64,000 nt of DNA from an uncultured Klebsiella sp. GTDB lineage: Bacteria > Verrucomicrobiota > Verrucomicrobiia > Limisphaerales > SXTU01. The notes beneath the pieces were generated by a model. It searched no databases and was not told the DNA's origin. It was given only the letters and a program-made list of their open reading frames with translations. Shown one piece after another: positions 4,188 to 63,881 of the stretch (positions within the stretch are counted from its first letter, which is position 1; every line of letters starts with the position of its first letter). Where the stretch lies: assembly GCA_964478755.1 (NCBI GenBank), contig CAYZJP010000004.1:16738-80737 (forward strand). The letters run 5' to 3'. Both the position numbers and the translations under genes were made by a program.

Positions 4188-4207
4188 GCGGCGACGGTAG
4201 GAGATAA

Positions 4208-4288
4208 GTTGAAAGTTGAAAGTTGAAAGCTGAACGGACGCGCCCAACTCGACCGAGCGAGCCTGACCTCTCCTTCAACTTTCAACTC
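4208..4288. repeat. tandem-heptamer hairpin: GTTGAAA x3 plus GCTGAAC (4208-4235), opposed by TTCAAC-T-TTCAAC (4274-4286)
   Basis: Read directly from the sequence. The period is 7 nt. The second arm is the complement of the first unit. It lies between the MBL gene and apaG. Confidence 0.8.
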
Positions 4289-4296
4289 GCCTAACC

Positions 4297-7930: not shown

Positions 7931-7941
7931 CTTCGTTCCAT

Positions 7942-8004
7942 GTTCAAGGTTCAAGGTTCCAAGTGAGCCGCCCAACCTTGAACTTTGAACCTTAAACTTT
8001 GAAC
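7942..8004. repeat. tandem-heptamer hairpin: GTTCAAG-type units (7942-7963) opposed by CTTGAAC/CTTTGAA units (7976-8004)
   Basis: Read directly. There are three units in one arm and four in the other, with an approximately 12-nt loop. It fills the 80-nt gap between two co-directional genes and may also act as a terminator. Confidence 0.8.
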
Positions 8005-9021: not shown

Positions 9022-9077
9022 GCGTGTATGCGCCGTGTGTGAGCCATGAACCAATCATCCGTTCTCCCTCACCCTAG

Positions 9078-9287
9078 CCCTCTCCCGCTGGGAGAGGGAA
9101 CCGCTTCGACCGCGTCTCTCGTCACCGCACGCGCCCTTTCGCTCCACCGCTGGCTGCCTTTCTCCCTCTCCCTTTGCGGAGCAAAGGGAGAGGGCCGGGG
9201 TGAGGGGTTGCGTGCGACGGCGTTGGCGGCCCCTCCCCTCATCCGGCCTGCGGCCACCTTCTCCCCTCGCTCTGCGAAGGGAGAAGG
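9078..9287. repeat. cluster of three REP-like stem-loops (CCCTCTCCC/GGGAGAGGG type)
   Basis: The hairpins are at 9078-9098, 9164-9194 and 9257-9287. Translation gives the familiar bogus peptides SPLPLGEG and GEGRGEG, so the track ORFs 9046..9384 and 9055..9336 are artefacts. Confidence 0.8.
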
Positions 9288-9334: not shown

Positions 9335-9376
9335 ATTGGAAGTTGAATGTTGAGCGTTGGACGTTGGGCGTTTCCC
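9335..9376 (+). repeat. degenerating heptamer run: ATTGGAA GTTGAAT GTTGAGC GTTGGAC GTTGGGC GTTTCCC
   Basis: Read directly. It shows period 7 over six units, with no opposing arm. It ends just upstream of the first DegT gene start. Confidence 0.7.
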
Positions 9377-18631: not shown

Positions 18632-20884
18632 TCAGTGATTGAACACAAACTCAACCGTGTTCAACAGGCTCCACGCGTAGTCCTCGACGGCCTGCTGGCG
18701 GTCGGGGTTCGCGGAGAAATGCCTCACCGCCAACTGCCGTTCTGCATCGTTCGGCAGGCGGCTGAAATAAGTCAGGTAAAGTTCGTCGGCGAGCTTCACA
18801 TTGTCCGGCTGTTCAGCGACGAGTCGCGCGAGCTGGCCGTCGGCGTGCGACAGTTTCGCCTGGAGGTTCGGCGAGTTCAGCAGGTGCAGCACCTGCGCGA
18901 TGCTGGCCTCGCTGTTGCGCTCGCACTCGCACGCGGTCACTCGCACAGGACGGCCGAAGAGTTTCAGAAAGTAGTGCTGCGTCTGGCTGTCCCAGAGCTG
19001 GATGGCGCGCGTGCCGCTTGGCACTCCGTCAAACTTCTCCGGCACGCCCGTCACTTGGCAGACCGCGTCGAGCAGCACCTCGGCGGGCAGCCGCTTGAAG
19101 AGCGCGCGGGAATAATTTTGCTCATCCTGCGCGTTGGTTTCGTTCGGCGTCGCGGAAAGCTGGTAGGTGCGCGACGCCGTGAGCGTGCGAATGAATTGCT
19201 TGAGGTCGAAGCGCGCGTCCAGGAGCGCCTTGGCCAGCGCGTCGAGCAGCGCGGGGTTGCCCGGCGGGTTCGTCGCGCGCACATCGTCCACCGGCTCGAT
19301 GACGCCACGACCGAAGAAGTGCGCGACGAGACGGTTCGCCAAGTTCCGCGCGAACCACGGATTCTCCGGCGCGGTGAACCACTCGGCCAGCGCGCGACGG
19401 CGGTCGCCCGCGTCCTTTGCCGGCTCGGCATCCAGCGCGTGCGGCGGGACATTCTCGCCCGTGCGCGGATGCTTCGTCGTGGGATTGCCTTCAGCCAGCA
19501 GCGTCTCGCCCAGCGCGCCCTTGCGGATGCTCACCTGCGCGAACAGGCCGGACATGCCGTAGTAATCCGTCTGGCTCCAGCGGTCGAAGGGATGATGATG
19601 GCACTCCGCGCACGCAATGCGAATGCCGAGGAAGACTTGCGAGACCGCGTTGGCCATGTCGCCGGGGCGCGTGACGACCTTGTAGAAATGTCCGGCGGGC
19701 GCGTCGTCCAGCGGCCCCTCGGCCGTGAGCAGCGCGCGCGCGAACTGGTCGAGCGGACGGTTCGCGGCGAACTGCTCGCGAATCCACCGGTAGTAGGCGT
19801 AGGCGTCGCGCTGGCCGAGCTTCTGCCGGTCCACGCGCAACAGGTCGGCCCACTTCAGCGCCCAGAAGTCCGCGTATTCGGGCCGCTCCAGCAACGCGTC
19901 CACCAGCCGCGCGCGTTTGTCGGACGCCTTGTCCACAAGAAAGCGCCGCGCCTCGTCTGCTGTAGGCAACGTGCCGATGATGTCGAGATGCGCGCGGCGG
20001 AGGAACGTCGCGTCGTCGCAGACTTCGCTCGGGCGCAAGTTCAGTTTCTTCAAGTGCGCATTGACGTGTCCGTCAATGAAGTTGAACTCCGCGAAGCCCG
20101 CGTCGCCGACCGGCTTGCCCGGACGCGGCACGATGGCCATGAACGAAGTCACCTCGCCGAGATAGCGCGCCATCACCGAGGTCTGCCCCGGCAGCGAGCC
20201 AATGCTCACCGCACCGTTCTCGTCCACTTTCGCGAGCGAATCGTTGTTCGACTGGAAGATGCAAAAGCGCGTCACGTCGGCCTTGCGCCCGTCGCTGTAG
20301 GTGGCGTTGACGCGAAGCTGGAGTTTCGCGCCCGGCGCGAGGCTGCGCTCGCGTGGCTCCAACTCGACGCGGACGACCTTCGCGTCGTTGGTCGAGCCAA
20401 ACGGCGCGCCCGCTGCGAGCCACGCGCGGAAGGTCTCGTAATCGGGCGAGTCAACGGGAATGCGCGCGCCGCCCTGATGCGGCATCGCGCCGCTGGCCTT
20501 CGCGAGAAAGAGACTTTGCTCCGGCACGGCGGGCGAGGCGCGGCGGCCCTTGCTCTCAACCGTCAGCGCGCGGAAGTCCGCGAGCGGGTCGTAGCCGAAG
20601 ACAGAGAGCTTGAAACCGTTCTGTCCCTCGGCCTTGCCGTGGCACGGCGAGCTGTTGCAGCCGTAGCGCGTGAGCAACGGACTGAGGTCATTCTCGAAGT
20701 TGAAGGTGCGCGGCACCGCGACCTTCGCGGGCGCGGCACTGAGCGACGCGGCGGCGAGCACAACGACGGCCAACACTGGTTTGAACAACGGACTCAAGCG
20801 TTTGACGATGGGGTTCAGACGGCGGGTCGCGATGGGTGCTTCACAGCCTCTGCGGACCGTTATCCAGCCGCGCGTCGCCGGCAT
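18632..20884 (-). CDS. DUF1549 (PSCyt2) / Ig-like / DUF1553 (PSD1) protein
   Basis: Motifs are LLTRYGCNSSPCHGKAEGQNGFKLS, a Big_2-like segment, CAECHHHPFDRWSQTDYYG, and a DUF1553-type C-terminus. The only ATG start (20884) overlaps the fdhD 3' end by 44 nt, so the start is uncertain. Confidence 0.85.
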   Translation of the reverse strand: MPATRGWITVRRGCEAPIATRRLNPIVKRLSPLFKPVLAVVVLAAASLSAAPAKVAVPRTFNFENDLSPLLTRYGCNSSPCHGKAEGQNGFKLSVFGYDPLADFRALTVESKGRRASPAVPEQSLFLAKASGAMPHQGGARIPVDSPDYETFRAWLAAGAPFGSTNDAKVVRVELEPRERSLAPGAKLQLRVNATYSDGRKADVTRFCIFQSNNDSLAKVDENGAVSIGSLPGQTSVMARYLGEVTSFMAIVPRPGKPVGDAGFAEFNFIDGHVNAHLKKLNLRPSEVCDDATFLRRAHLDIIGTLPTADEARRFLVDKASDKRARLVDALLERPEYADFWALKWADLLRVDRQKLGQRDAYAYYRWIREQFAANRPLDQFARALLTAEGPLDDAPAGHFYKVVTRPGDMANAVSQVFLGIRIACAECHHHPFDRWSQTDYYGMSGLFAQVSIRKGALGETLLAEGNPTTKHPRTGENVPPHALDAEPAKDAGDRRRALAEWFTAPENPWFARNLANRLVAHFFGRGVIEPVDDVRATNPPGNPALLDALAKALLDARFDLKQFIRTLTASRTYQLSATPNETNAQDEQNYSRALFKRLPAEVLLDAVCQVTGVPEKFDGVPSGTRAIQLWDSQTQHYFLKLFGRPVRVTACECERNSEASIAQVLHLLNSPNLQAKLSHADGQLARLVAEQPDNVKLADELYLTYFSRLPNDAERQLAVRHFSANPDRQQAVEDYAWSLLNTVEFVFNH

Positions 20885-21681: not shown

Positions 21682-21799
21682 GCCACAGATTGACACAGAT
21701 GAAACACAGATTTGGGAAAGCGGCCACAGCAAGTCACAGAACTTCTCGCACAGCACCGACCGCGCAGTCATCTGTGTGCCATCTGTGTTCATCTGTGGC
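21682..21799. repeat. hairpin with decamer-unit arms (CACAGAT x3 versus CATCTGTG x3)
   Basis: The left arm (21682-21711) is the reverse complement of the right arm (21768-21799). The spacer is about 55 nt. Confidence 0.8.
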
Positions 21800-22434: not shown

Positions 22435-22615
22435 GTAGGTCAGGCTTCCAGCCTGACCTCAAACCCCTCCGTCGCGTGGGGGGAGGTGAGCATCCACATC
22501 AATGAAACCGGAAACGCCTTGAGGCGAAACTTGGAGCTGCTCGTGAAACCAAACCCATGCCGTGTGAATCAACCTCTTCGTGACAGATGGATGTCAGGCT
22601 GGAAGCCTGACCTAC
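22435..22615. mobile_element. MITE-like 181-bp element with perfect 23-nt terminal inverted repeats
   Basis: GTAGGTCAGGCTTCCAGCCTGAC (22435-22457) is the exact reverse complement of 22593-22615. Each terminus is itself a hairpin. The element lies in the divergent intergenic region. Confidence 0.6.
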
Positions 22616-24306: not shown

Positions 24307-25053
24307 CGCGGCGCACCCCAACGGGGTGCCGTCCTCCAGCCCTGGGTTTGGCGCGCAATCCGGGTGTGCCCTGTCGGGGCACCCGCATGCGTCGTGTTTC
24401 TTCGCGGCTTCGCCGCCCCTTCAGGGCGGGAGATTTGTTGGGGCCGGGTTCCCAGGGTAGCGCTGCGCGCAACCCTGGGCTGTATTCCGTTGCCCCCTTG
24501 GGGCAAGGGAGCGGGCCGACCGCGCGGGCCGCGCGATGGTGGCGCACCGGAGGTGCGCTTGAAGGTAGCCGGTGGGAAGCCTGCGACCGCAGGCGCGCCC
24601 ACCGGTTCGCTGGCCGAGCGGAGAGCGCCCCGGCGGGGCGCATGAACGTTCCGGCGAGTTCCGTTTCATCCGCCCCGCTGGGGCGGCGGGCATCGGCTCG
24701 CGTTTCCGGTGGGTGCAGCGCTCCCGTTGGTCGCGCCTTCCCACCGGCTACCTTCAGTTGCCCTTCCGGGGCAGAACCATCGTGCCGAGCGAGGACTTCG
24801 TCCCCCTTCTGCTTTGCGCCCCATGCACTGCCAGCTCCCCACTTCATCCTAAGCCGGAAGGGTTTTTTCCAACGCAGAGGATGCGAAGGACGCAGAGATG
24901 GCGCAGAGACAGAGGAGAGATGTCCGTCTCTGCGGCTCTCTGCGGTCTCTGCGCACTTTGCGTTAAAGCGAGTCGTCCGGCCACTTTGGTTGGGCTTCCG
25001 CCCCGCTGGGCTCTTTCGCGGCTAAATCATTTTCTTCCTGTGGCCAAACCTTC
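24307..25053. repeat. 0.75-kb island made only of REP-like palindromes
   Basis: There are many short GC hairpins, for example GCGCCCCGGCGGGGCGC and CCGCCCCGCTGGGGCGG. GAAGGTAGCCGGTGGGAAG (about 24570) has a 19-nt inverted partner at about 24737. A CGCAGAGA/TCTCTGCG decamer hairpin lies at 24873-24954. The track ORFs across it have Arg/Pro/Gly junk composition. Confidence 0.8.
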
Positions 25054-26386
25054 CAAAACCCAGTGGGACTTCGGCGCGGAACTCTTCCCGACCGAGGCGG
25101 TGCGCAAGGTGCTTTCCGTCTCTGAGCTGACCGGGCAAATCAAGCGGCTGCTGGAGAAGCAGGTCGGGCAGGTCGCGGTGTCCGGCGAAATCACGAACCT
25201 GCGCGCGCAGGCGTCGGGGCACGTCTATTTCACGCTCAAGGACGCCGGCGCGCAGCTCGCGTGCGTGCTCTTCCGCAACACGCCCGTGCCGCACCGCGCG
25301 CTGCTCGCGGACGGCCAGAAGGTGCTGCTTACCGGCGACGTGACGGTCTATGAGGCGCGCGGCCAGTATCAGCTCATCGTCAGCGCGGTGGAGCTGCAGG
25401 GCGTGGGCGCGTTGCAGGCGGCGTTCGAGCGGCTCAAGGAAAAGCTCGCGGCGGAAGGCCTCTTCAAGCTGGAGCGCAAGCGCAGGCTCCCGCGTTACCC
25501 GCAACGCATCGGCCTTGTCACCTCGCCCACCGGCGCGGCCATCCGCGACGTGCTGCACGTCATCGCGCGCCGCCAGCCGGGCCTCGAAGTCATCCTCGCC
25601 CCGTGCCGCGTGCAGGGGGAAGGAGCGGCGGCGGAAGTCGCGACGGCCATCGAGCGCCTCAACAAATTCGCAATTCGCAATTCGCAATTCGCAATTGACC
25701 TCATCCTCATCACGCGCGGCGGCGGCTCGCTCGAAGACCTGTGTGCGTTCAACGAAGAGGCCGTCGCGCGGGCCATCTTCGCGTCAGCGGTGCCGGTGGT
25801 GTCAGCGGTCGGCCACGAGATTGACTTCACCATCGCGGACTTCGTCGCGGACCTGCGTGCGGCCACGCCCAGCGCGGCGGCGGGGTTGATTACGGAAGGC
25901 GCGTTCGCCAGCCGGGAGTTCGTCGCGGAAGCCACAGTTCGATTGCGGCAACTGGCGAGGCAGCACTTGGAGGCGGCGGAAGAAAGTTTCGGGCAAGTGC
26001 ATCACAGGCTCGCGCTCGCGCATCCGCAGCGGCGCTTGCAGGAATGGGCACAGCGGCTGGACGACGCGGGCACCGCGCTGAACCGTGAAGCGAAGACGCA
26101 CCTGCGCGAGCGGCGGCATCGCCTCACACAGGCCGCGCTGCATCTACAACGGCTCAAGCCCGTAGCCCAACTCGCCCTGCGATGCGAGCACCTCGGCGCA
26201 TTGATTGACCGCCTGCGTCTGCTTTCGCCTGACAATGTCCTCGCGCGCGGCTACTCCATCACCACGGACGCGGCAACCGGCAAAGTCGTCCGCCGCGCTG
26301 AACAGGCCAAGCCCGGCCAGAGGCTCAGCACCCGTGTCCAGCATGGAAAAATTGAGAGCGTGGTGCGTGATGCAGGCTCACTGTAG
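25040..26386 (+). CDS. xseA: exodeoxyribonuclease VII large subunit
   Basis: Motifs are LSVSELTGQIKRLLE, an OB fold (VSGEITNLRAQASGHVYFTLKD), RIGLVTSPTGAAIRD and ITRGGGSLEDL. The GTG at 25040 is the preferred start, because upstream of it the frame translates the REP island. Confidence 0.86.
   Translation: MAKPSKTQWDFGAELFPTEAVRKVLSVSELTGQIKRLLEKQVGQVAVSGEITNLRAQASGHVYFTLKDAGAQLACVLFRNTPVPHRALLADGQKVLLTGDVTVYEARGQYQLIVSAVELQGVGALQAAFERLKEKLAAEGLFKLERKRRLPRYPQRIGLVTSPTGAAIRDVLHVIARRQPGLEVILAPCRVQGEGAAAEVATAIERLNKFAIRNSQFAIDLILITRGGGSLEDLCAFNEEAVARAIFASAVPVVSAVGHEIDFTIADFVADLRAATPSAAAGLITEGAFASREFVAEATVRLRQLARQHLEAAEESFGQVHHRLALAHPQRRLQEWAQRLDDAGTALNREAKTHLRERRHRLTQAALHLQRLKPVAQLALRCEHLGALIDRLRLLSPDNVLARGYSITTDAATGKVVRRAEQAKPGQRLSTRVQHGKIESVVRDAGSL
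25665..25697 (+). repeat. AATTCGC x4.7 tandem heptamers, in frame inside xseA
   Basis: Read directly. The run encodes KFAIRNSQFAI, immediately before the conserved ITRGGGSLEDL block. Confidence 0.85.
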
Positions 26387-26454
26387 CGGCGGTCTGTGAC
26401 CGCCGTTCGGCCTCACGTTTGCCATCGAACGGCGGTCACAGACCGCCGCTACAG
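26381..26454. repeat. perfect 29-nt inverted repeat (CTGTAGCGGCGGTCTGTGACCGCCGTTCG) with a 16-nt loop
   Basis: Arm 1 is 26381-26409 and contains the xseA TAG stop. Arm 2 is 26426-26454. Each arm contains its own GGCGGTC..GACCGCC hairpin. It could act as a terminator. Confidence 0.85.
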
Positions 26455-28688: not shown

Positions 28689-31220
28689 ATGGCTGTGCTG
28701 CTCGTGCCTCTCGTGGTGGTGGCCGCGCCGCCGGTGGACTTCGCGCGCGAGGTGCGTCCGCTGCTGGTGAAGCGCTGCCTCTCGTGCCACGACGCGGAAC
28801 ACGCGAAGGGCGGTCTGCGCCTCGACTCCCGCGAAGCGGCCTTCAAAGGCGGCAAGTCGAAGCAACCCGCGCTCGTCCCCGGCACGCCCGCGAAGAGCGA
28901 ACTGGTCAAGCGCATCATCACGCCCGACGCGGACGAGCTGATGCCGCCGAAGGGCGGCGCGCTGACTGCGGCGCAGATCGCCTTGCTCACGCGCTGGATC
29001 GAGCAGGGTGCGAACTGGCCGGCCGACAGCGCGGCGAGGCACTGGGCCTTCGTGCCGCCCGTTCGCCCGCCTGTCCCAGCGGTGAAAAGCAAGTCATGGC
29101 CGCGCAACGCCATTGACCACTTCGTCCTCGCGAAACTGGAGGAGCGCGGCTGGCAGCCGTCAGCCCAGGCCGAGCAGCGCGTGCTGCTCCGGCGCGTGTT
29201 CCTCGACCTCACAGGCCTGCCACCAACGCTGGCGGAACAGGACAAGTTCCTCGCCGACAATTCGTCCGACGCCTTCACGCGGCTCGTGGATGAGTTGCTC
29301 GCTCGCACAAGCTACGGCGAACGCTGGGGCCGTCACTGGCTCGACCTCGCGCGATACGCGGAGACCAACGGCTACGAGCGCGACGCCATCAAGCCCAGCG
29401 TCTGGCGCTACCGAGATTACGTCATCGCCGCCTTCAACTCGGACAAGCCCTACGACCGCTTCATCCGCGAGCAACTCGCCGGCGACGAGTTGCCCGATGC
29501 GAACGCCGAGACGCTCATCGCCACCGGCTTCCTCCGCCTCGGCCCGTGGGACGACGAGCCGGCCGACCCCGTGCAGGACCGCGCGGACCAGGTGGACGAC
29601 ATGATCCGCACGACGGCGCAGGCCTTCCTCGGCGTCACGCTCGGCTGCGCGCGCTGCCACGACCACAAGTTCGACCCGCTCACCGCGCGCGATTACTACA
29701 GCCTTGCCGCCGTCTTCGCGCCGCTGAAGCGCACGCAGTCCGGCCGCAGCGACCTCGACGCGCCCGCCGGGACGCGCGCGGAACTCAAGGCGCTAGCTGC
29801 CTGTGACCAACGCATCGCGGCGCTGACGAAGGAGATTGAGGCCGCTCGCAGTGAGTTTCGTAACGCCTTCCTCTCAGGCGGCAAGTCTGCCTTACCCGCC
29901 GACGCGCTCACCGCCTTCCGCACGGATGCGAAGCAACAGTCACCCGCGCAGAAGGAACTCGTGAAACAGTTCACGCCACAGCTAGACGCGGAGCTTGCCA
30001 AGGCCCTGCCCGCCGAAGCCCGCACCCGCATCGCCGCCGCCGAAGCCACCATCGCCGAGCTGCGCCGCGCCACACCCGATCTGCCGCGCGGCTACTTCCC
30101 CAGCGAGCCGAGCGGCGTGCCACCGAAGAGCTACGTCCTGCTGCGCGGGAGCGCGCACAGCCCCGGCGCGGAGGTCTTCCCCGCTGTCCCGGTCGCGCTG
30201 ACTGTGAAGCAGCCCGTCTTCCCGTCACCCGATGAGTTCACGATGCACAGACGCTTGGTGCTTGCGAACTGGATTGCCAGCCCCGACAACCCGCTCACCG
30301 CGCGCGTGATCGTCAACCGCGTCTGGCAGCACCATTTCGGGGAAGGCCTCGTGCGGACGCCCAGCGACTTCGGCCTCATCGGGGCCGCGCCCACGCACCC
30401 GGAGTTGCTCGACTGGCTGGCGGATTGGTTCGTGAAGGAAGGCGGCTGGTCAGTGAAGAAGTTGCACCGGCTGATTCTGGCAAGCGCGACGTGGCAGCAG
30501 CGGGGGGCAGTCGAGAGTCGAGAGTCGAGAGTCGAAGGGCCGAAGGCACGAATGTCCGTAGCCCTCGACCCTCGACCTTCGACCCTCGACCCAGAAAACC
30601 TTCTGCTCGCCCGCTTCCCCTACCGCCGACTCGAAGTCGAGGCCATCCGGGACTCGATGCTTGCCGTGAGCGGGCGGCTCAACCCCCGCGTCGGCGGGCC
30701 GAGCATGTATCCCGAAGTGCCGAAGGAAGCCCTCGCCGGCAGCAGCGACCCGGGCAGCATCTGGAAGCCCTTCGATGAAGCCGACGCCTCGCGTCGCACC
30801 GTGTATGCCTTCCTGAAACGCTCGTTCGTCGTGCCGATGCTCGAAGTGCTGGACGTGTGCGACACCACGCAGAGCAGCGACAAACGCGCCGTCACCAGCA
30901 TCGCCCCGCAGGCGCTCACGCTCTTCAACGGCGAGTTCGTGAACCGCCAGGCCAGCCATTTCGCCGACCGCCTCCGCCGCGAGGCCGGGCCGCTGCCGGC
31001 GGACAAAATCCAGCTCGCGTGGCGGCTCGCTCTGTCCCGCCCGCCCAAGCCCGAAGAACTCGCCGCGATGCAACGCTTCCTCGCCGAGGAAACCGCCAGC
31101 CAGCTCCGCGAAGCCACCGTCGCAAGTCGCAACATCTCCACCGACGAAGCCGCCCAAGCCGCCCTCACCCAACTATGCCGCGTGGTTCTGAACCTCAACG
31201 AGTTTGTCTATCCCGATTGA
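28689..31220 (+). CDS. PSCyt1 / DUF1549 / DUF1553 protein
   Basis: The ATG at 28689 gives a signal peptide, then [22 protein letters not shown] (PSCyt1), [18 protein letters not shown], and a DUF1553 C-terminus. It pairs with the downstream DUF1501 gene. Confidence 0.9.
30510..30591. repeat. complete tandem-heptamer hairpin, in frame inside the DUF1553 gene
   Basis: The left arm is GTCGAGA x3 plus GTCGAAG-GGC (30510-30540). The loop is 20 nt. The right arm is GCC-CTCGACC CTCGACC TTCGACC CTCGACC (30561-30591). It encodes [28 protein letters not shown]. Confidence 0.88.
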
Positions 31221-33401: not shown

Positions 33402-35834
33402 TCATTCCCGCACCGTCGCGGAGAGCTTCTGCTTCAGCGCGTCCACGGCCTTCGCGTGTGCTGCGTTCACGTCGGCATCAGTCAGCGTCTTGTCAGCGGC
33501 GCGGTAGGTGAAGGCGTAGGCGAGGCTCTTCTGGCCGGCAGGGACGTTCTTGCCACGGAATATGTCGAACAGCTCCACACTCTCCAAGTTCGCGGGCTTG
33601 GCTTGCTTCACGGCCATCAAGACGGCGTCGTGCGTCGTTGCCTCTGCTACGAGCATCGCCACGTCGCGACGGCTTGCGGGGAACTGCGGCAGCGGCTTGA
33701 AGGACTTGTTTCGGTTGCCGCGCGCGAGGAGTTCGTCGAGGCGAAGTTCCGCGAGGAAGACGGCGTCGCGCAGGTCGTATTGCTTCGCGAGCGTCGGGAG
33801 AAGCTGCCCGAGTTCGCCGAGTTGGACCTTGCCGCCGAGCGTGATGGCGGCGGATTCAAGGAAGAGCGCGTTCGGCTCGGCGCGCTTGCCGAACTGCACG
33901 CCGCGCAGGCCGAAGTGCTCCAGCACATCCTCGACAAGCCCCTTCAAGTCCATCGCGTCAAACTTCGCATCGCGGTCGTCGCCGCTCCAGAAGGCGGGCG
34001 CGCGCTGGCCGGTCAGGGCGATGGCCACGCGGCGCTCCTCCTTCGGCTGGCCGTTCACGCTCGTGAACACGCGGCCCATCTCGAACAGCGCCACATCGTT
34101 GTTCTTGCGGTTCAGATTGTGCCGCAGGGAGTGGATGAGTCCCGGCAACAGCGACGGCCGCAGCACGTCCATGTCGGAACTCAGCGGGTTCGAGAGCGCT
34201 ACGACTTCTTCTGACTTCTGACTTCTGACTTCTGACTTCCCAATCAGCGTCTGCCCCTGTGCCTCGTTCAGCCCGAGGCCGGTGAGCAACCGCCGCACGG
34301 CGGCGATTTCGTCATACACGGCATCGAACGCATTAGTGCCAACCGCGCCGCGCGGGGCGGTGCTGGGAATCTTGTCCACGCCGTGCAGCCGGGCGATTTC
34401 CTCGATGAGGTCCACCTCGCGCTTGAGGTCCACGCGGAAGGTGGGGATGGAAAAGGTTGCCGATTGCGGATTGCCAGTTGCCGATTGAGTGAGGCCGAGG
34501 CTGGTCAAAAACTTCGCCTGCTGCTCCGGCGCGATGGCGAGGCCGAGCAACTCGTCGGTCTTGGCAAACCGCAGGGAAATTTCCTTCGCCTTCGCAGGCT
34601 GCGGGAAGGCATCCACCACGCCCGGCACGAGCGTGCCGCCGGCAGTTTCAAGGACGAGCTGCGCCGCGCGCTGGCTCGCGTAGTCCGCGATGCCGACATC
34701 GCAGCCGCGCTCGAAGCGGTAGCTGGACTCGCTGCGCAGGCCGAGGGCCTTGCTGGTGCGGCGGATATTCGTCGGCGCGAAGTAGGCGCTCTCGATGAGC
34801 ACATCCTTCGTGTCGTCGCGAATCTCCGTGTTCACGCCGCCCATCACGCCCGCAAGCGCAATGCCCTTCTGCTCGTCGGCGATGAGGAGCATATCGCCGG
34901 TGAGCGCGCGCTCCTGATTGTCGAGCGTCTTGAACTTCTCGTCCGCCGCCGCGCGACGGATGACGATAGTGGGTTTGCCATCCGCGCCCTTGGCGATGAG
35001 GTGATAATCGAACGCGTGCAGCGGCTGGCCAGTTTCCAGCATGACGTAGTTCGTCACGTCCACCACGTTGCTGATGCTGCGGATGCCGACCTTCTCCAAC
35101 GTCTGCCGCAGCCAGTCGGGACTCGGCCCGACCTTCACGCCCGTCACGACGCGCGCGGTGTAGCGCGGGCAAAGCTCAGATTCTTCCAAACGCACTGCGA
35201 CGTGCTCCTGAATTCCGACTCCTGACTCCTGACTTCTGACTTCAGGCACCTTCAACGGATTCCCCGTCACCGCCGCAATCTCCCGCGCGATGCCGATGAC
35301 GCTGTTCAAGTCCGGTCGGTTCGGCGTGACTTCGAGGTCATACACCACGTCGCTGCCCGCACGGCCCAGATGCTCCGCGAACGGCTGACCTACTTTCGCG
35401 TCCGGCGGCAGGATGATGATGCCGTCGCCGTCCTCGCCGAGGCCGAGTTCCTTCTTCGAGCACATCATGCCCTGGCTCACGACGCCGAAGACTTTGCGCT
35501 CCTTGATGACGAACGGCTCCTTCTCACCGGCCTTCAGCGGCAGCGCGAAGTTCGGGAGGATGAGCGCGACCTTGTCGCCCGGCTGATGGTTGGGCGCGCC
35601 GCAGATGATGGTGCGCTCGCCGGTGCCGTCGTGGACGCGGTTGACGGAGAGCTTGTCCGAGCCGGCGACCTTGTCCTTCGCGAGCACTTGCGCGACGACG
35701 ACGCCCTCGAACTCGCCGCCGAGCCGCTGCACGCCCTCGACTTCGAGACCGAGCATCGTGAGCCGCTCCGCGAGTTCCGCTGGCGACCAGTTGAAATCAA
35801 CGTATTGCTTGAGCCAGTTAAGGGTGACTTTCAT
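33402..35834 (-). CDS. pheT: phenylalanine--tRNA ligase beta subunit
   Basis: The protein starts MKVTLNWLKQYV. It has a tRNA-binding OB domain, B3/4, B5 and FDX-ACB regions, and CPRYTARV. Confidence 0.93.
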   Translation of the reverse strand: MKVTLNWLKQYVDFNWSPAELAERLTMLGLEVEGVQRLGGEFEGVVVAQVLAKDKVAGSDKLSVNRVHDGTGERTIICGAPNHQPGDKVALILPNFALPLKAGEKEPFVIKERKVFGVVSQGMMCSKKELGLGEDGDGIIILPPDAKVGQPFAEHLGRAGSDVVYDLEVTPNRPDLNSVIGIAREIAAVTGNPLKVPEVRSQESGVGIQEHVAVRLEESELCPRYTARVVTGVKVGPSPDWLRQTLEKVGIRSISNVVDVTNYVMLETGQPLHAFDYHLIAKGADGKPTIVIRRAAADEKFKTLDNQERALTGDMLLIADEQKGIALAGVMGGVNTEIRDDTKDVLIESAYFAPTNIRRTSKALGLRSESSYRFERGCDVGIADYASQRAAQLVLETAGGTLVPGVVDAFPQPAKAKEISLRFAKTDELLGLAIAPEQQAKFLTSLGLTQSATGNPQSATFSIPTFRVDLKREVDLIEEIARLHGVDKIPSTAPRGAVGTNAFDAVYDEIAAVRRLLTGLGLNEAQGQTLIGKSEVRSQKSEEVVALSNPLSSDMDVLRPSLLPGLIHSLRHNLNRKNNDVALFEMGRVFTSVNGQPKEERRVAIALTGQRAPAFWSGDDRDAKFDAMDLKGLVEDVLEHFGLRGVQFGKRAEPNALFLESAAITLGGKVQLGELGQLLPTLAKQYDLRDAVFLAELRLDELLARGNRNKSFKPLPQFPASRRDVAMLVAEATTHDAVLMAVKQAKPANLESVELFDIFRGKNVPAGQKSLAYAFTYRAADKTLTDADVNAAHAKAVDALKQKLSATVRE
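34203..34240 (-). repeat. TCTGACT x4-5 tandem heptamers (AGTCAGA on the coding strand), in frame inside pheT
   Basis: Read directly. The run encodes KSEVRSQKSEEV. Confidence 0.85.
35206..35247 (-). repeat. TCCTGAC-type heptamers x6, in frame inside pheT
   Basis: The units are TCCTGAA TTCCGAC TCCTGAC TCCTGAC TTCTGAC TTCAGGC. The run encodes PEVRSQESGVGIQE. Confidence 0.85.
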
Positions 35835-39126: not shown

Positions 39127-40155
39127 TCAAAACTGCCTCAAAAACCGCACATCATTCTCGTAGAACAGCCGGATGTCGGTGATGCCGTAGCGGAGCATGG
39201 CGATGCGCTCGATGCCGAAGCCGAAGGCCCAGCCGGTCCAGACCTCGGGATCGTAGCCGACGTTCTCGAAGACTTGCGGGTGCACCATGCCGCAGCCGGC
39301 GATCTCCAGCCAGTCCTTGCCGAGCTTCTTCACGAGCGCGTTGGTGAAATCAATCTCCAGGCTCGGCTCGGTGTAGCTGAAGTAGTGCGGTCGGAAGCGG
39401 AGCTTCACGTCGCTGCCGAGCACGTCCTTGAACACGGCTTCCACAGTGCCTTTGAGGTCGCCGACGGTGACGTTCTTGTCCACATAGAGGCCCTCGATCT
39501 GGTGGAAGGTCGGGTTGTGCGTGGCGTCGGCGTTGTCGCGGCGATAAACGCGACCCGGCACGATGATGCGGATGGGCGGCGGCTGCGACTGCATCACGCG
39601 GATTTGCACGGAGGAGGTGTGCGTGCGAAGCAGTTGAGAGTTCTTAGTTGAGAGTTGAGAGCCGGAAGCTGGCGCGACGTAGAATGTGTCTTGGCTGTCG
39701 CGCGCGGGGTGGTCGGTGGGCGTATTCAGCGCATCGAAGCAGTGATACTCGTCCTCGATCTCCGGGCCGTCGGCGACGGCGAAGCCGACTTTGCGGAACG
39801 CGCGGACGATGTCGTCGGTGACTTGCGTGAGCGGATGCAAGCGGCCCACGGCGCGGCGGCGGCCGGGGAGCGTCCAGTCGGTCGGTTCCTTGGGCAGCGC
39901 GGCCTTGAGTTCGAGTTCGCTGCGACGCACGGCGAGTGCGGCTTCGAGTTCGACTTTCGCGGCGTTGATGGCTTTGCCGGCGGCGGGGCGATCTTCCTTG
40001 GGCAGCGAGCCAAGCTGCTTCATCAGCGCGGTGAACTTGCCATCACCGCCGAGGAACGCGCCTTTGGTCTGCTCCAGCGCGGGCAGGTCGGTGGCGGCGG
40101 CGAGGGCGGCGAGCGCCTCAGATTTCAAAGGGTCGAGCTGGGCCAGGAGTGACAT
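39127..40155 (-). CDS. pheS: phenylalanine--tRNA ligase alpha subunit
   Basis: Motifs are HPLTQV, DTFYV, LLRTHTSSVQIR, GRVYRRD and GFGIERIAMLRYGI. Confidence 0.93.
   Translation of the reverse strand: MSLLAQLDPLKSEALAALAAATDLPALEQTKGAFLGGDGKFTALMKQLGSLPKEDRPAAGKAINAAKVELEAALAVRRSELELKAALPKEPTDWTLPGRRRAVGRLHPLTQVTDDIVRAFRKVGFAVADGPEIEDEYHCFDALNTPTDHPARDSQDTFYVAPASGSQLSTKNSQLLRTHTSSVQIRVMQSQPPPIRIIVPGRVYRRDNADATHNPTFHQIEGLYVDKNVTVGDLKGTVEAVFKDVLGSDVKLRFRPHYFSYTEPSLEIDFTNALVKKLGKDWLEIAGCGMVHPQVFENVGYDPEVWTGWAFGFGIERIAMLRYGITDIRLFYENDVRFLRQF
39633..39660 (-). repeat. GTTGAGA-type heptamers x4 (TCTCAAC on the coding strand), in frame inside pheS
   Basis: The units are GTTGAGA GTTCTTA GTTGAGA GTTGAGA. 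The run encodes SQLSTKNSQL, just before the conserved LLRTHTS. Confidence 0.85.
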
Positions 40156-46576: not shown

Positions 46577-46599
46577 TCAGGAAAGCAGGAAGGCAGGAA
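46575..46599. repeat. left inverted repeat of the GxxExxY cassette (AATCAGGAAAGCAGGAAGGCAGGAA)
   Basis: It matches the reverse complement of 47020-47044 at 23 of 25 nt. Internally it consists of 8-nt CAGGAARG units. It begins inside the czcB TAA stop. Confidence 0.8.
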
Positions 46600-46621
46600 T
46601 GGAAACAGTAACTGAAACGAC

Positions 46622-47008
46622 ATGATGCTGGAGCACGAGGAACTGACGGGGAAGATTATTGCGGCGGCGATTCGGGTTCACAAGGAACTCGGACCGGGCT
46701 TCGTCGAGTCCATCTACGAGGAGGCGATGGCGATTGAACTAACGGCGTCAGGCATTCCGTTCGAGCGGCAGAAGTTGATTCGCGTGCTCTACAGCGGCCA
46801 GCCTGTCGGAGAGCATCGGCTGGACTTGCTCGTGGACAAACTCATCGTAGTCGAGCTGAAAGCCGTGAGTGAACTGCCAGACGTGTTCTTCGCGCGCACT
46901 CGTTCCTATCTCAAGGCGTTGGATCTGAACCACGGCCTGATCTTGAACTTCGCCACCATGCCGCTCACAATCAAACGTGTCCACCGCGAGCCATCCCACA
47001 ACGCCTGA
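46622..47008 (+). CDS. GxxExxY protein (PD-(D/E)XK nuclease-like, PDDEXK_3)
   Basis: It is 128 aa with GPGFVESIYEEA (the G-x-x-E-x-x-Y motif) and DLLVD...VVELK (D...ExK). Confidence 0.85.
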   Translation: MMLEHEELTGKIIAAAIRVHKELGPGFVESIYEEAMAIELTASGIPFERQKLIRVLYSGQPVGEHRLDLLVDKLIVVELKAVSELPDVFFARTRSYLKALDLNHGLILNFATMPLTIKRVHREPSHNA

Positions 47009-47019
47009 ATGAATTCCTT

Positions 47020-47044
47020 TTCCTGCCTTCCTGCCCTCCTGATT
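47020..47044. repeat. right inverted repeat of the GxxExxY cassette
   Basis: The sequence is TTCCTGCCTTCCTGCCCTCCTGATT. A further CCTTCCTGATTC copy (47072-47083) abuts the czcA ATG. Confidence 0.8.
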
Positions 47045-50503: not shown

Positions 50504-50585
50504 CCCTCGGACGCAGCTCACTGGCTTGCCGGGGCAACTCTGGTTGGCGTTCCCGTTCCAGCGTCGGAGGCGCGTCAGATAGTAG

Positions 50586-50800
50586 CCCCGGGCGTAAGCC
50601 CGGGGTAACCGATGGAAACCAGCCAGCCCCAGCGGGGCGATAGAACCCTCTGCCGCCCCGCTGGGGCTGGGTTGGGCAACGCAGCCCACCCACGGCTCAC
50701 GCCGTGGGCTACTTTCTACCGGTGCTCCGCACCTGTGCCCGCCCGGACCACGACTGGCCTTTGTGACATCTGTGACCTACCCTCCGTGCGGCGGAGGGTC
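50586..50800. repeat. REP-like hairpin cluster
   Basis: Hairpins are CCCCGGGCGTAAGCCCGGGG, a 16-nt perfect inverted repeat (CAGCCCCAGCGGGGCG at 50624-50639 and 50654-50669), CCCACGGC..GCCGTGGG, and CCCTCCG..CGGAGGG. Confidence 0.75.
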
Positions 50801-50996: not shown

Positions 50997-51932
50997 TCAG
51001 GGCAGCGAAAAATAATCCACCGCCTGGTAGCGCCCGTCCACGAGCTTGGCGATTTGCATGAGCACGTCGTTGACGAGCGTGCTCGCGCCGAAGCGGAAGA
51101 GGTCGGGCGTGAGCCAGTCGTCGCCGAGGGTTTCCTTCACCATCACGAGATAGGCGAGGGCTTGCTTGCTGGTGCGGATGCCGCCGGCGGGCTTCATGCC
51201 GATGCGCACGCCGGTGGCGAAGAAGTGGTCGCGGATGGCCTCCAGCATCACGAGCGTGACGGGCATGGTGGCGGCGGGCGTGACCTTGCCGGTGCTGGTC
51301 TTGATGAAGTCCGCGCCAGCCTCCATCGCGATCTGGCTCGCGAGGCGGACGTTGTCGTAGGTGACGAGTTCGCCGGTCTCGAAGATGACCTTCAGGTGAG
51401 CGGGGCCGCAGGCTTCTTTCGTCGCGGCGATTTCGTCGTGGACCCGCGCGTGATCGCCGGTGAGGAAGGCGCAGCGGTCAATGACCATGTCGATTTCATC
51501 CGCGCCATCGGCCACGGCGCGGCGGACTTCGGCGAGCTTCGTGGGCAGAGGATACTGGCCGCTGGGGAAGCCAGTGGCGACGGCGGCGACTTTCACCGGC
51601 GAGTTCACGCCGAGGAATTTGTGCGCGTGCTTCACCATGTTCGGATACACGCACACGGCGGCGCAGGACGGCACGTCGAGGCGCGGCTCGGCGGGCGCGA
51701 GGGCCTTGCGGCAGAGGAAGGCAACTTTGCCCGGCGTGTCTTTGCCTTCGAGCGTCGTGAGGTCCATCATGCTGACAGCCATTTTGAGGCCGGCGAGCTT
51801 GGCGGAGGTCTTGATGCTGCGCTTGGCAAAGCTGGCCGCGCGCTCCTCGGCCATGATCTGGTCCACTGTCGGCACGACAGGGACGCGGAACGTGGAACGC
51901 GGCGCGCGGAACGGGATGGTGAGCGCTTTCAT
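50997..51932 (-). CDS. deoC: deoxyribose-phosphate aldolase (long, DERA-like form)
   Basis: Motifs are DLTTLEG, VCVYP, DEIDMVI, LKVIFETGEL and FIKTSTGK (the Schiff-base Lys). The ATG is at 51932. The longer track ORF is an artefact. Confidence 0.88.
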   Translation of the reverse strand: MKALTIPFRAPRSTFRVPVVPTVDQIMAEERAASFAKRSIKTSAKLAGLKMAVSMMDLTTLEGKDTPGKVAFLCRKALAPAEPRLDVPSCAAVCVYPNMVKHAHKFLGVNSPVKVAAVATGFPSGQYPLPTKLAEVRRAVADGADEIDMVIDRCAFLTGDHARVHDEIAATKEACGPAHLKVIFETGELVTYDNVRLASQIAMEAGADFIKTSTGKVTPAATMPVTLVMLEAIRDHFFATGVRIGMKPAGGIRTSKQALAYLVMVKETLGDDWLTPDLFRFGASTLVNDVLMQIAKLVDGRYQAVDYFSLP

Positions 51933-63327: not shown

Positions 63328-63881
63328 GGCTTGGTCTCCGGCGGGGCGGCGGCGAGGAAGGTGAAGAGCGGGGTGACGCGCTTCTTCGGGTCTTTGGTCT
63401 GCAACTCCACTTCCCAGCGCCAGGCGGTGACGTGCTGGCGGGCGTCGGCGTCCATGTGTGAGGACTTCACACGGGCAAGGGCGGGCTGCCACGCGGTGTT
63501 CGTGCTCTCCTGCCGCCAGATGGTGTCCTTGAAGTGGATATAGACCGTCAGGTTCGTGCCGTGCGGGATGGCGAGCCAGTGCTGGCCGTCCTTCTCGACC
63601 GCGCGCGGCGGGGCGGTGGCGGTGCGCACGTCCTCGCGCCAGCGTTCGCCCGCGTGGAGCGCGCGCGTGATGTCGTCGGCGTTGCGGCGGAGCGCGTCCG
63701 CGCCGGCGCGTCCGGAGAAGAAGAGCTGCAGGACGAAGCCGAACATGATGGCGAGCATCGCGATCCAGACGAGGCACTCGATGAGTGTGAAAGCGGGAGA
63801 GCGATTAGTGATGAGTGAATGGGGATTCGTGGAGCGCGAGCGCCCAACTCGAAACCCAAAACTCGGAACTCGGAACTTCAT
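63324..63881 (-). CDS. prepilin-type N-terminal cleavage/methylation domain protein (pseudopilin)
   Basis: It has AFTLIECLVWIAMLAI, preceded by a 25-aa leader encoded partly by a heptamer run. The ATG at 63881 overlaps the upstream stop. Confidence 0.75.
   Translation of the reverse strand: MKFRVPSFGFRVGRSRSTNPHSLITNRSPAFTLIECLVWIAMLAIMFGFVLQLFFSGRAGADALRRNADDITRALHAGERWREDVRTATAPPRAVEKDGQHWLAIPHGTNLTVYIHFKDTIWRQESTNTAWQPALARVKSSHMDADARQHVTAWRWEVELQTKDPKKRVTPLFTFLAAAPPETKP
63846..63880 (-). repeat. AACTCGG-type heptamers x5, forming the 5' end of the pseudopilin ORF
   Basis: The units are AACTCGA AACCCAA AACTCGG AACTCGG AACTTCA. The run encodes MKFRVPSFGFRVG. Confidence 0.8.

Follow-up and report, generated by a model that had tools for sequence, protein, structure and literature searches.

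What places a long hairpin in frame inside a conserved protein-coding gene, and what maintains it there? The question is raised by an 82-nt hairpin at positions 30510-30591 of a 64-kb stretch of verrucomicrobial DNA (64,000 nt of contig CAYZJP010000004.1, positions 16,738 to 80,737, hereafter the window), in which two 31-nt heptamer arrays flank a 20-nt loop within a gene of the DUF1553 (PSD1) family. The window hairpin is one copy of a class in which two convergent arrays, each about 31 nt long and made up of some 4.4 heptamer units, form a G-rich 5' arm and a C-rich 3' arm around a loop specific to each copy. The insert is in frame, its units turn over, decay and are inverted among orthologs, such arrays are abundant in the lineage, and at a sister site an array was homogenised or re-created in place. 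We hold with moderate confidence that the element is a self-homogenising repeat at the level of DNA, tolerated by a permissive protein loop, rather than a gene-specific regulator of mRNA.

The window hairpin and its host gene

A preliminary description of the window had reported an 82-nt hairpin with heptamer arms, a 20-nt loop and pairing at six of the seven positions of each unit, lying in frame inside a DUF1553 gene. All of this was borne out. Reading of the sequence gave the same structure, Tandem Repeats Finder (TRF) identified both arms as period-7 arrays (3.9 and 4.4 copies), and the open reading frame (ORF) of the host gene contained the Pfam domains listed below, with the frame intact across the hairpin.

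30510-30540, plus strand: 5' arm, GTCGAGA three times and then GTCGAAGGGC; 31 nt, G-rich (14 G, 5 C)
30541-30560, plus strand: loop, CGAAGGCACGAATGTCCGTA; 20 nt
30561-30591, plus strand: 3' arm, GCC followed by CTCGACC CTCGACC TTCGACC CTCGACC; 31 nt, C-rich
28689-31220, plus strand: host gene, 843 amino acids, with PSCyt1, PSCyt2 (DUF1549) and PSD1 (DUF1553) domains (Pfam)

The RNA fold of each strand was compared with 200 dinucleotide-preserving shuffles. The plus strand folded at -50 kcal/mol (z -4.5) and the minus strand at -65 kcal/mol (z -7.1), and none of the 200 shuffles folded as low on either strand, as had been anticipated for a genuine hairpin. The fold of the minus strand was the stronger because the unpaired seventh position of each unit is G.U on the minus strand and A.C on the plus strand. 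The minus-strand arm also has four GGG tracts. The final unit of the 3' arm overlaps conserved Leu-Asp-Pro codons, and the 20-nt loop encodes no ORF. No Rfam family was found at the hairpin at gathering or permissive thresholds, only generic long-hairpin miRNA models being returned (15-33 bits vs cut-offs of 70-137), and a scan of the site for promoters and terminators gave no signal. No second GTCGAGA hairpin was present within the 64-kb window.

In the host protein the hairpin occupies codons 608-635 and is translated as 28 hydrophilic residues. AlphaFold2, run with a homolog alignment, gave residues 607-645 a predicted local distance difference test (pLDDT) score below 50 and placed them between two confidently predicted helices, 589-597 and 647-661; the block of helix 589-597 scored 86-93. 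The segment is thus modelled with low confidence, and it is predicted to form a disordered surface loop between helices of the PSD1 domain.

Alignment of 56 proteins around this position showed that homologs of 63% identity or less have a conserved linker of 11-12 amino acids, MSKxWNPxYGAE, between the blocks LHRLIL.S.T and DPEN. None of these homologs had an insert, whereas all 35 orthologs of 66-85% identity had 17-46 extra or replaced residues at exactly the same codon. The inserts of the orthologs could not be aligned with each other, and their flanks were nearly identical. A paralog in the window (18632-20884), which we now assign to the minus strand, was without the segment, as expected for an insertion. 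The view of the segment as an inserted module therefore stands with respect to distant homologs and the paralog, but the insert is neither private to this gene nor recent, since all orthologs of 66-85% identity have one. An equally long and alignable segment in homologs had been named as evidence against an insertion; these orthologs have segments of similar length, but the segments are not alignable. The flanking blocks had also been taken as adjacent, which does not hold, because relatives without the insert have the 11-12-residue linker between them. No empty allele of the PSD1 site was found among orthologs of at least 66% identity. As judged by comparison of these sequences, the insert at the PSD1 site is old.

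The same codon in orthologs

Twelve genes, the window gene and 11 orthologs whose DNA was obtained, L001 apart, by exact-protein look-ups, were read at the DNA level at this site (other loci are designated by L and a number). A significant hairpin was present in nine of the 12 genes, two kept one arm, and one was without a repeat.

Window: hairpin, unit GTCGAGA
L165: hairpin, unit GTCGAGG
L083: hairpin, unit GTTGAAGA / CTTCAACC, period 8
L084 and L001: hairpins, unit GCGGAAT
L166: hairpin, unit TTAGTGA
L167: hairpin, unit GTGCGAGA, period 8
L168: hairpin, ACGTAAT-type unit
L489 (66% identity): hairpin, unit GGAGTGTT
L081 (closest ortholog, 85% identity): left array only, sense-strand z -0.07
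L490: solo array, (CAGTGAT)3
L491: no repeat

The nine hairpins had z-scores of about -2.5 to -9.2 on the better strand, and the single site was occupied by at least seven unrelated units of 7-8 nt (GTCGAGR, GTTGAAGA, GCGGAAT, TTAGTGA, GTGCGAGA, ACGTAAT and GGAGTGTT). A z-score was used for each sequence in place of a count of column covariation, because no column-wise alignment is possible between hairpins that differ in the type of their unit. The element of L165 proved to be the window element in inverted orientation (reverse-complement alignment 82 vs 56; loop alone 32 vs 8). The structure has thus been kept while its sequence was replaced, and it has been inverted, halved or lost without loss of the gene, which argues against a gene-specific requirement and points towards a DNA property of the site.

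In eight of the nine genes with a significant hairpin the antisense strand was lower in fold energy, because the mismatches are G.U on that strand. An antisense function is one reading of this bias, and selection for a weaker sense hairpin is a reading no less easy. The history of the site was examined by neighbour-joining and a nearest-neighbour test on the flanks. Flank identity averaged 0.917 between genes with the same insert type and 0.866 between genes with different types, and nearest neighbours shared the insert type in 16 of 32 cases, in a star-like radiation. This partial agreement could result from early diversification within such a radiation or, just as well, from repeated replacement of the insert.

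The nearest homologs of the host protein are encoded by metagenome-assembled genomes (MAGs) of Verrucomicrobia (Pedosphaera, Limisphaerales), which makes this lineage the probable source of the window. Several verrucomicrobial MAG contigs that encode close orthologs of window genes (L083, L213, L219, L232, L242, L165, L289 and L408) are misleadingly labelled 'uncultured Klebsiella sp.' or 'Proteobacteria bacterium'. Scans of genomes and metagenomes for orthologs relied on peptide patterns that proved too generic, so that nearly all matches were distant loci of the paralog type and L001 was the only useful one.

Sister arrays and hairpins in the lineage

The window and eight related loci together have 17.9 period-7 arrays per 100 kb, compared with 3.0 per 100 kb in 2.4 Mb of DNA from other phyla, an enrichment of about sixfold, and more than 10 different array units were found in the window. 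The host gene is preceded by xseA, a gene for a DUF4380 protein and a gene for a GFO/IDH/MocA oxidoreductase, and is followed by a DUF1501 gene and pheT. Arrays translated in frame were found in the essential housekeeping genes pheT (three in the window), pheS and xseA. The sister arrays and hairpins of the window are the following.

7935-8004, no strand assigned: intergenic hairpin of the GTTCAAG / CTTGAAC type, between hldE-like and epimerase genes
4206-4291, no strand assigned: hairpin of (AAGTTGA)4 with a two-unit inverted partner, between MBL-fold and apaG genes
34208-34239, minus strand: site D, solo perfect array (AGAAGTC)4.6, in frame in pheT
34457-34487, minus strand: site C, in frame in pheT, a decayed GCAATCG-type array that has the same length in three genomes
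35205-35241, minus strand: site A, AGTCAGG/AGTCAGA array, in frame in pheT; orthologs have perfect arrays of other units there
25665-25696, plus strand: solo perfect array (AATTCGC)4.6, in frame in xseA
39632-39661, minus strand: array of the GTTGAGA type on the plus strand, in frame within pheS

Several of these sites are also occupied in related genomes. L165 has an element at the intergenic site of the 7935-8004 hairpin, as does L166 with a different unit, and the xseA site of (AATTCGC)4.6 bears a GGGTTGAA-type hairpin in L167 and L232. A further pheT site, site B, contains a 66-nt GGGTTGAA hairpin in L168 and L219 that is absent from the window, L081 and L165. Comparison of the filled and empty forms of site B revealed no target-site duplication; the flanks had diverged, and 12 nt had been replaced. 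At site D the length of the array was unchanged with respect to orthologs. L165 matched the periodic consensus there at 21 of 33 positions, and at all 11 positions at which the window and L165 differed it was the window that had the periodic base. The array of site D was therefore homogenised or re-created in place.

The same unit was also found at unrelated places of one genome. The L083 genome has GGGTTGAA hairpins at the PSD1 site, at pheT site B and at the xseA site, with three unrelated loops, and the L165 genome has a second GTCGAGG hairpin (L408), the loop of which is unrelated to that at the L165 site. In GGGTTGAA hairpins borne by genes, the in-frame TGA that one arm would otherwise contain has been abolished by substitutions (GTTCAAGG in L083 is an example), and selection for an open frame is therefore indicated.

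Two further interpretations of shared units were considered and not adopted. The repeats (GGGTTGAA)3 and (GTCGAGR)3 each gave at least 120 matches across phyla, which were not taken as horizontal spread because they may be no more than the background expected for a given unit in 596 Gb. Seeding of the window unit from the adjacent Leu-Asp-Pro codons (CTCGACC) was set aside, as the same unit forms hairpins elsewhere (L408, L388 and L428). Other period-7 arrays of the window lie near gene starts or in unassigned DNA, at 9349-9372 (GTTGGGC), 51883-51913 (ACGCGGA) and 63860-63877 (AACTCGG), and at 51883 the unit is of the GCGGAAC type and similar to that of the L084 hairpin at the PSD1 site.

Polarity and array length

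The orientation of the arms was examined by pairing tandem arrays with an inverted partner at most 300 nt away in 4.5 Mb of fetched DNA. With TRF pairing, the 5' arm had more G than C in all 49 GTCGARR hairpins, in all 11 GGGTTGAA hairpins and in 46 of 75 others, and a tally of the period-7 hairpins among these 75 gave about 30 that follow the G-rich-5' rule and about five against it. A regular-expression count in the GTCGARR family gave 28 pairs in the order F..R and none in the order R..F. The window hairpin follows the rule. Exceptions included L378 (R..F), the ACGTAAT-type hairpin of L168, in which the polarity is opposite and weak, and a few others among the other units.

Array length was examined in about 3 Mb of loci that had not been selected for repeats. 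Period-7 arrays had a separate mode at 30-32 nt, whereas arrays of periods 6, 8 and 9 merely decayed with length. Perfect period-7 and period-8 runs reached at most 32-34 nt, a limit that does not correspond to an integer number of units.

GxxExxY cassettes and other features of the window

Inverted arrays of short tandem repeats were also found around genes of the GxxExxY family. One such gene lies in the window (46622-47008, plus strand; TIGR04256, 128.7 bits, PD-(D/E)xK-like) between czcB-like and czcA-like genes, and it is bracketed (46578-47041) by inverted 8-mer arrays, CAGGAAAG in 2.8 copies and TTCCTGCC in 2.8 copies. The sequence of the GxxExxY protein had no match in the PDB. The flanks of 80 GxxExxY genes from many phyla were compared with shuffled controls. 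The best inverted flank repeat had a median score of 16-18 compared with 9 for the shuffles, and 49 of the 80 genes scored 14 or more, the maximum of the shuffles being 13. Shuffles were used instead of a direct-repeat control because some loci hold arrays in both orientations, so that such a control offers no clean null. Of the arms of this group, 40 had a tandem 6-mer core with a period of 8-10, usually within 20 nt of the ORF; the cores included CGCCAAG, CACAGAG, CACAGAT, CACGAAT, CGCAAAG, CGGAG and CAGGAA. No description of repeats flanking GxxExxY genes was found in the searchable literature.

The window has two hairpins without an ORF, at 21682-21799 and 24871-24964, the arms of which are also built of a core plus a spacer (CACAGAT and CGCAGAG cores, period 9-11), and these cores flank GxxExxY genes elsewhere. 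At the site in L081 that is orthologous to 21682-21799 (L081 1861-2040), the CACAGAT hairpin encloses another hairpin, CAGGAAGG / CTTTCCTG, within its loop. The heptamer hairpins and the GxxExxY nuclease cassettes may belong to one system.

Several features of the window touch neither the hairpin nor the cassettes. Two Acido-Lenti-1 RNA motifs (Rfam RF01687) lie at 50560-50605 (minus strand) and 50689-50734 (plus strand), with 45.4 and 53.5 bits against a cut-off of 37; the pair is inverted, lies downstream of the czcA-like gene and has a 22-nt palindrome (50623-50670) between its members. A perfect 29-nt inverted repeat with a 16-nt spacer (CTGTAGCGGCGGTCTGTGACCGCCGTTCG; 26381-26454) overlaps the stop codon of xseA, the ORF of which ends at 26386, and extends just downstream, and each of its arms is itself partly palindromic. 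Inverted or palindromic repeats are also present at 22435-22615 and 9066-9287, namely GTAGGTCAGGCTTCCAGCCTGACCTC arms separated by 129 nt and a CCCTCTCCCTTTGCGGAGCAAAGGGAGAGGG palindrome in two copies, and they may represent further small repeat families.

Origin of the arrays

Under the reading that we favour, in which the element is a self-homogenising DNA repeat, an ancestral array or hairpin would have arisen once at the permissive PSD1 site, and processes at the DNA level would since have kept the site periodic and self-complementary. Candidate processes are slipped-strand mispairing within the arrays, template switching between the arms of the quasi-palindrome and re-synthesis after breakage of the hairpin. 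A variant unit would then spread through both arms, or the arms would be rewritten, faster than the flanks diverge, and selection would only keep the insert in frame and free of stop codons. Several points weigh against this account. The homogenising mechanism is one that we infer. A slippage of 7 nt in the essential gene pheT shifts the frame, and simple expansion or contraction would therefore be costly; slippage alone also does not obviously account for the 30-32-nt mode, the non-integer copy numbers and the 5'-G-rich polarity. The occurrence of a shared unit at unrelated sites of one genome (GGGTTGAA in L083, GTCGAGG in L165/L408), together with the presence or absence of the pheT hairpin, is more like insertion or templated writing than local drift. 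In addition, flank similarity is only a partial guide to the insert type, which 16 of 32 nearest neighbours share, and a function as sense mRNA, antisense RNA or G-quadruplex stays a candidate, if an improbable one.

Insertion would be explained if the hairpin were a non-autonomous mobile element resembling a miniature inverted-repeat transposable element (MITE), the arms of which are binding sites for a nuclease or transposase acting in trans, possibly the GxxExxY PD-(D/E)xK protein, with a preference for existing hairpins and permissive loops. The presence/absence polymorphism of the GGGTTGAA hairpin in pheT (L168 and L219 vs the window, L081 and L165), the use of one unit at three genes of one genome and the nesting of the CAGGAAGG hairpin within the CACAGAT hairpin loop of L081, where the window has the outer hairpin only, would all be expected of such an element, and the bracketing of 49 of 80 GxxExxY genes by inverted arrays scoring at least 14 (shuffle maximum 13), as well as of the window gene (46622-47008) by inverted CAGGAAAG arrays, offers a candidate enzyme. 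However, hairpins that share a unit have unrelated loops, and they are therefore not copies of one element. No target-site duplication was visible at the filled and empty pheT site, at site D the array replaced sequence without a change in length, and there was no second GTCGAGA hairpin within the 64-kb window. The arrays that flank GxxExxY genes also differ in construction, with a conserved core and a variable spacer at a period of 8-10, whereas the hairpin consists of whole units at a period of 7, and no GxxExxY gene lay beside any of the at least 120 GTCGAGR-array loci, among the matches listed. We regard a mobile element of this kind as unlikely.

Templated writing could take the form of a scar of a double-strand break, in which a template-directed repeat-adding polymerase extended both 3' ends by about 30 nt of a G-rich heptamer and the ends were joined with filler; we give this origin a low probability. 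It predicts G-rich 3' ends directed towards the centre, and this polarity was found in 60 of 60 hairpins of two unit families and in most other period-7 hairpins; the pairs of Xanthomonas arrays are likewise solely convergent (PMC4692102). It also predicts unique loops between shared arms, arms of 30-32 nt with non-integer copy numbers, solo arrays in which one end was extended, sharing of units within a genome, and replacement of sequence without target-site duplication. None of the other readings leads directly to all four of these features, namely polarity, arm length, unique loops and solo arrays. However, the enzyme and the template are without a candidate, and we know of no bacterial break-healing activity that adds repeats in this way. 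The ACGTAAT-type hairpin of L168, with its opposite and weak polarity, the R..F exception of L378 and the few others among other units do not fit, and the polarity could have another cause. It is accordingly a rather distant prospect that breaks, often at an existing hairpin, were healed by addition of about 30 nt of a G-rich 7-8-nt repeat to both 3' ends and then joined; if this were true, it would also explain why new units have been written at this one codon in each lineage. An equally doubtful alternative is that the hairpin serves its host gene, as a sense mRNA structure that slows ribosomes or is cut by RNase III, as an antisense RNA or as a minus-strand G-quadruplex. The persistence of a stable structure at one codon while the sequence changes, the lower antisense fold in eight of nine genes and the four GGG tracts of the minus-strand arm are in keeping with such a role. 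L081, L490 and L491 have, however, lost the structure or half of it, L165 has it in inverted form, the identical architecture occurs in unrelated genes and in intergenic DNA, and promoter-like and terminator-like signals and an Rfam family were all absent at the site. Most units of the site are also without G tracts, and the antisense bias could equally reflect selection that weakens the sense hairpin.

Whatever process formed it, the locus is an unusually clean natural experiment, in which one codon and one architecture have been combined with at least seven units, together with inversion, single-arm remnants and loss. The orthologs and the sister arrays in pheT, pheS and xseA make the birth of arrays, their homogenisation and the complementarity of arms measurable, and any mechanism must meet the strict 5'-G-rich polarity, the arm length of 30-32 nt and the unrelated loops. 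For annotation, hypervariable low-complexity loops of verrucomicrobial proteins can be translated DNA repeats, and GxxExxY genes are to be flagged as cargo of hairpins armed with tandem repeats.

Comparison with known systems

No description of such hairpins in Verrucomicrobia was found in the literature, and the element was compared with repeat systems of other bacteria. Short dispersed repeats that form hairpins, can nest and show presence/absence polymorphism are known as repetitive extragenic palindromic (REP) sequences, REPINs (hairpin-forming REP doublets) and MITEs, and in these respects the arrays are alike. REPs and MITEs differ in having a family consensus over the whole element, and MITEs have target-site duplications, whereas here the loops are unrelated and no duplication was found at pheT site B, the flanks of which have diverged. 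Of the features of MITEs, the window hairpin has terminal inverted repeats (31-nt arms, paired at six of seven positions per unit) but not near-identical copies that include the internal sequence, and the variability of the units argues against a single REP consensus. The GxxExxY cassettes, which occur in the same genomes, likewise have inverted arms of about 25-35 nt composed of three or four short tandem repeats. They differ in having a 6-7-nt core with a variable spacer (period 8-10) and both polarities and in enclosing an ORF of 125 amino acids, and the window hairpin has none of these features.

Rickettsia palindromic elements (RPEs) are palindromic repeats that lie in frame in unrelated genes and are translated in a manner compatible with the protein fold (PMC10969869). 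The window hairpin resembles them as an in-frame palindromic repeat at a structurally tolerant place in a protein-coding gene. RPEs, however, form families of 100-150 bp with a conserved consensus and peptide, whereas only the architecture of tandem-unit arms is shared here. Among tandem heptamers, the short tandemly repeated repetitive (STRR) sequences of cyanobacteria are related and abundant, and are mostly solo direct arrays. The TAACTGA heptamers of Beggiatoaceae are also abundant, of unexplained origin, typically present in 2-6 copies per set and occasionally located in ORFs, and a single inverted pair was found among 170 TAACTGA sets in Beggiatoa (PMC4679880). Unlike the window hairpin, both consist for the most part of single direct arrays, built from one fixed unit or a few and commonly placed upstream of genes.

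The closest likeness was to the GGGAATC arrays of Xanthomonas and the GGGGAYT arrays of Nostoc (PMC4692102). Heptameric repeats have been recognised as over-represented in bacteria since a finding of 2007, for which polymerase slippage is cited as a conjecture (PMC4692102). In two Xanthomonas species, Rehm et al. (2015) counted some 185 GGGAATC arrays per species; four units were the most common size, 70-75 close pairs were always convergent on opposite strands, 7-11% of the arrays lay inside genes, and sequence and length differed between related species (PMC4692102). The likenesses are tandem G-rich units of 7 nt at about four per array, close convergent pairs with the potential to form a stem-loop or cruciform, dispersed copies, variation at the same locus between related species and a minority of copies inside genes (PMC4692102). 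The window hairpin has about four 7-nt units per array, a convergent pair and enriched dispersed copies. It lacks one dominant G-tract unit with the capacity to form a G-quadruplex, since GCGGAAT, TTAGTGA and ACGTAAT are without GGG tracts. The verrucomicrobial arrays also differ in having many unrelated units per genome and units that, for most of those at the PSD1 site, cannot form G-quadruplexes, and the window copy lies in frame within a conserved protein at a site that is occupied in all orthologs of at least 66% identity. The window hairpin, which does not show the consensus that defines RPEs, MITEs or REPs, is best filed with the Xanthomonas class, the architecture of which it has and which is a known but unexplained kind.

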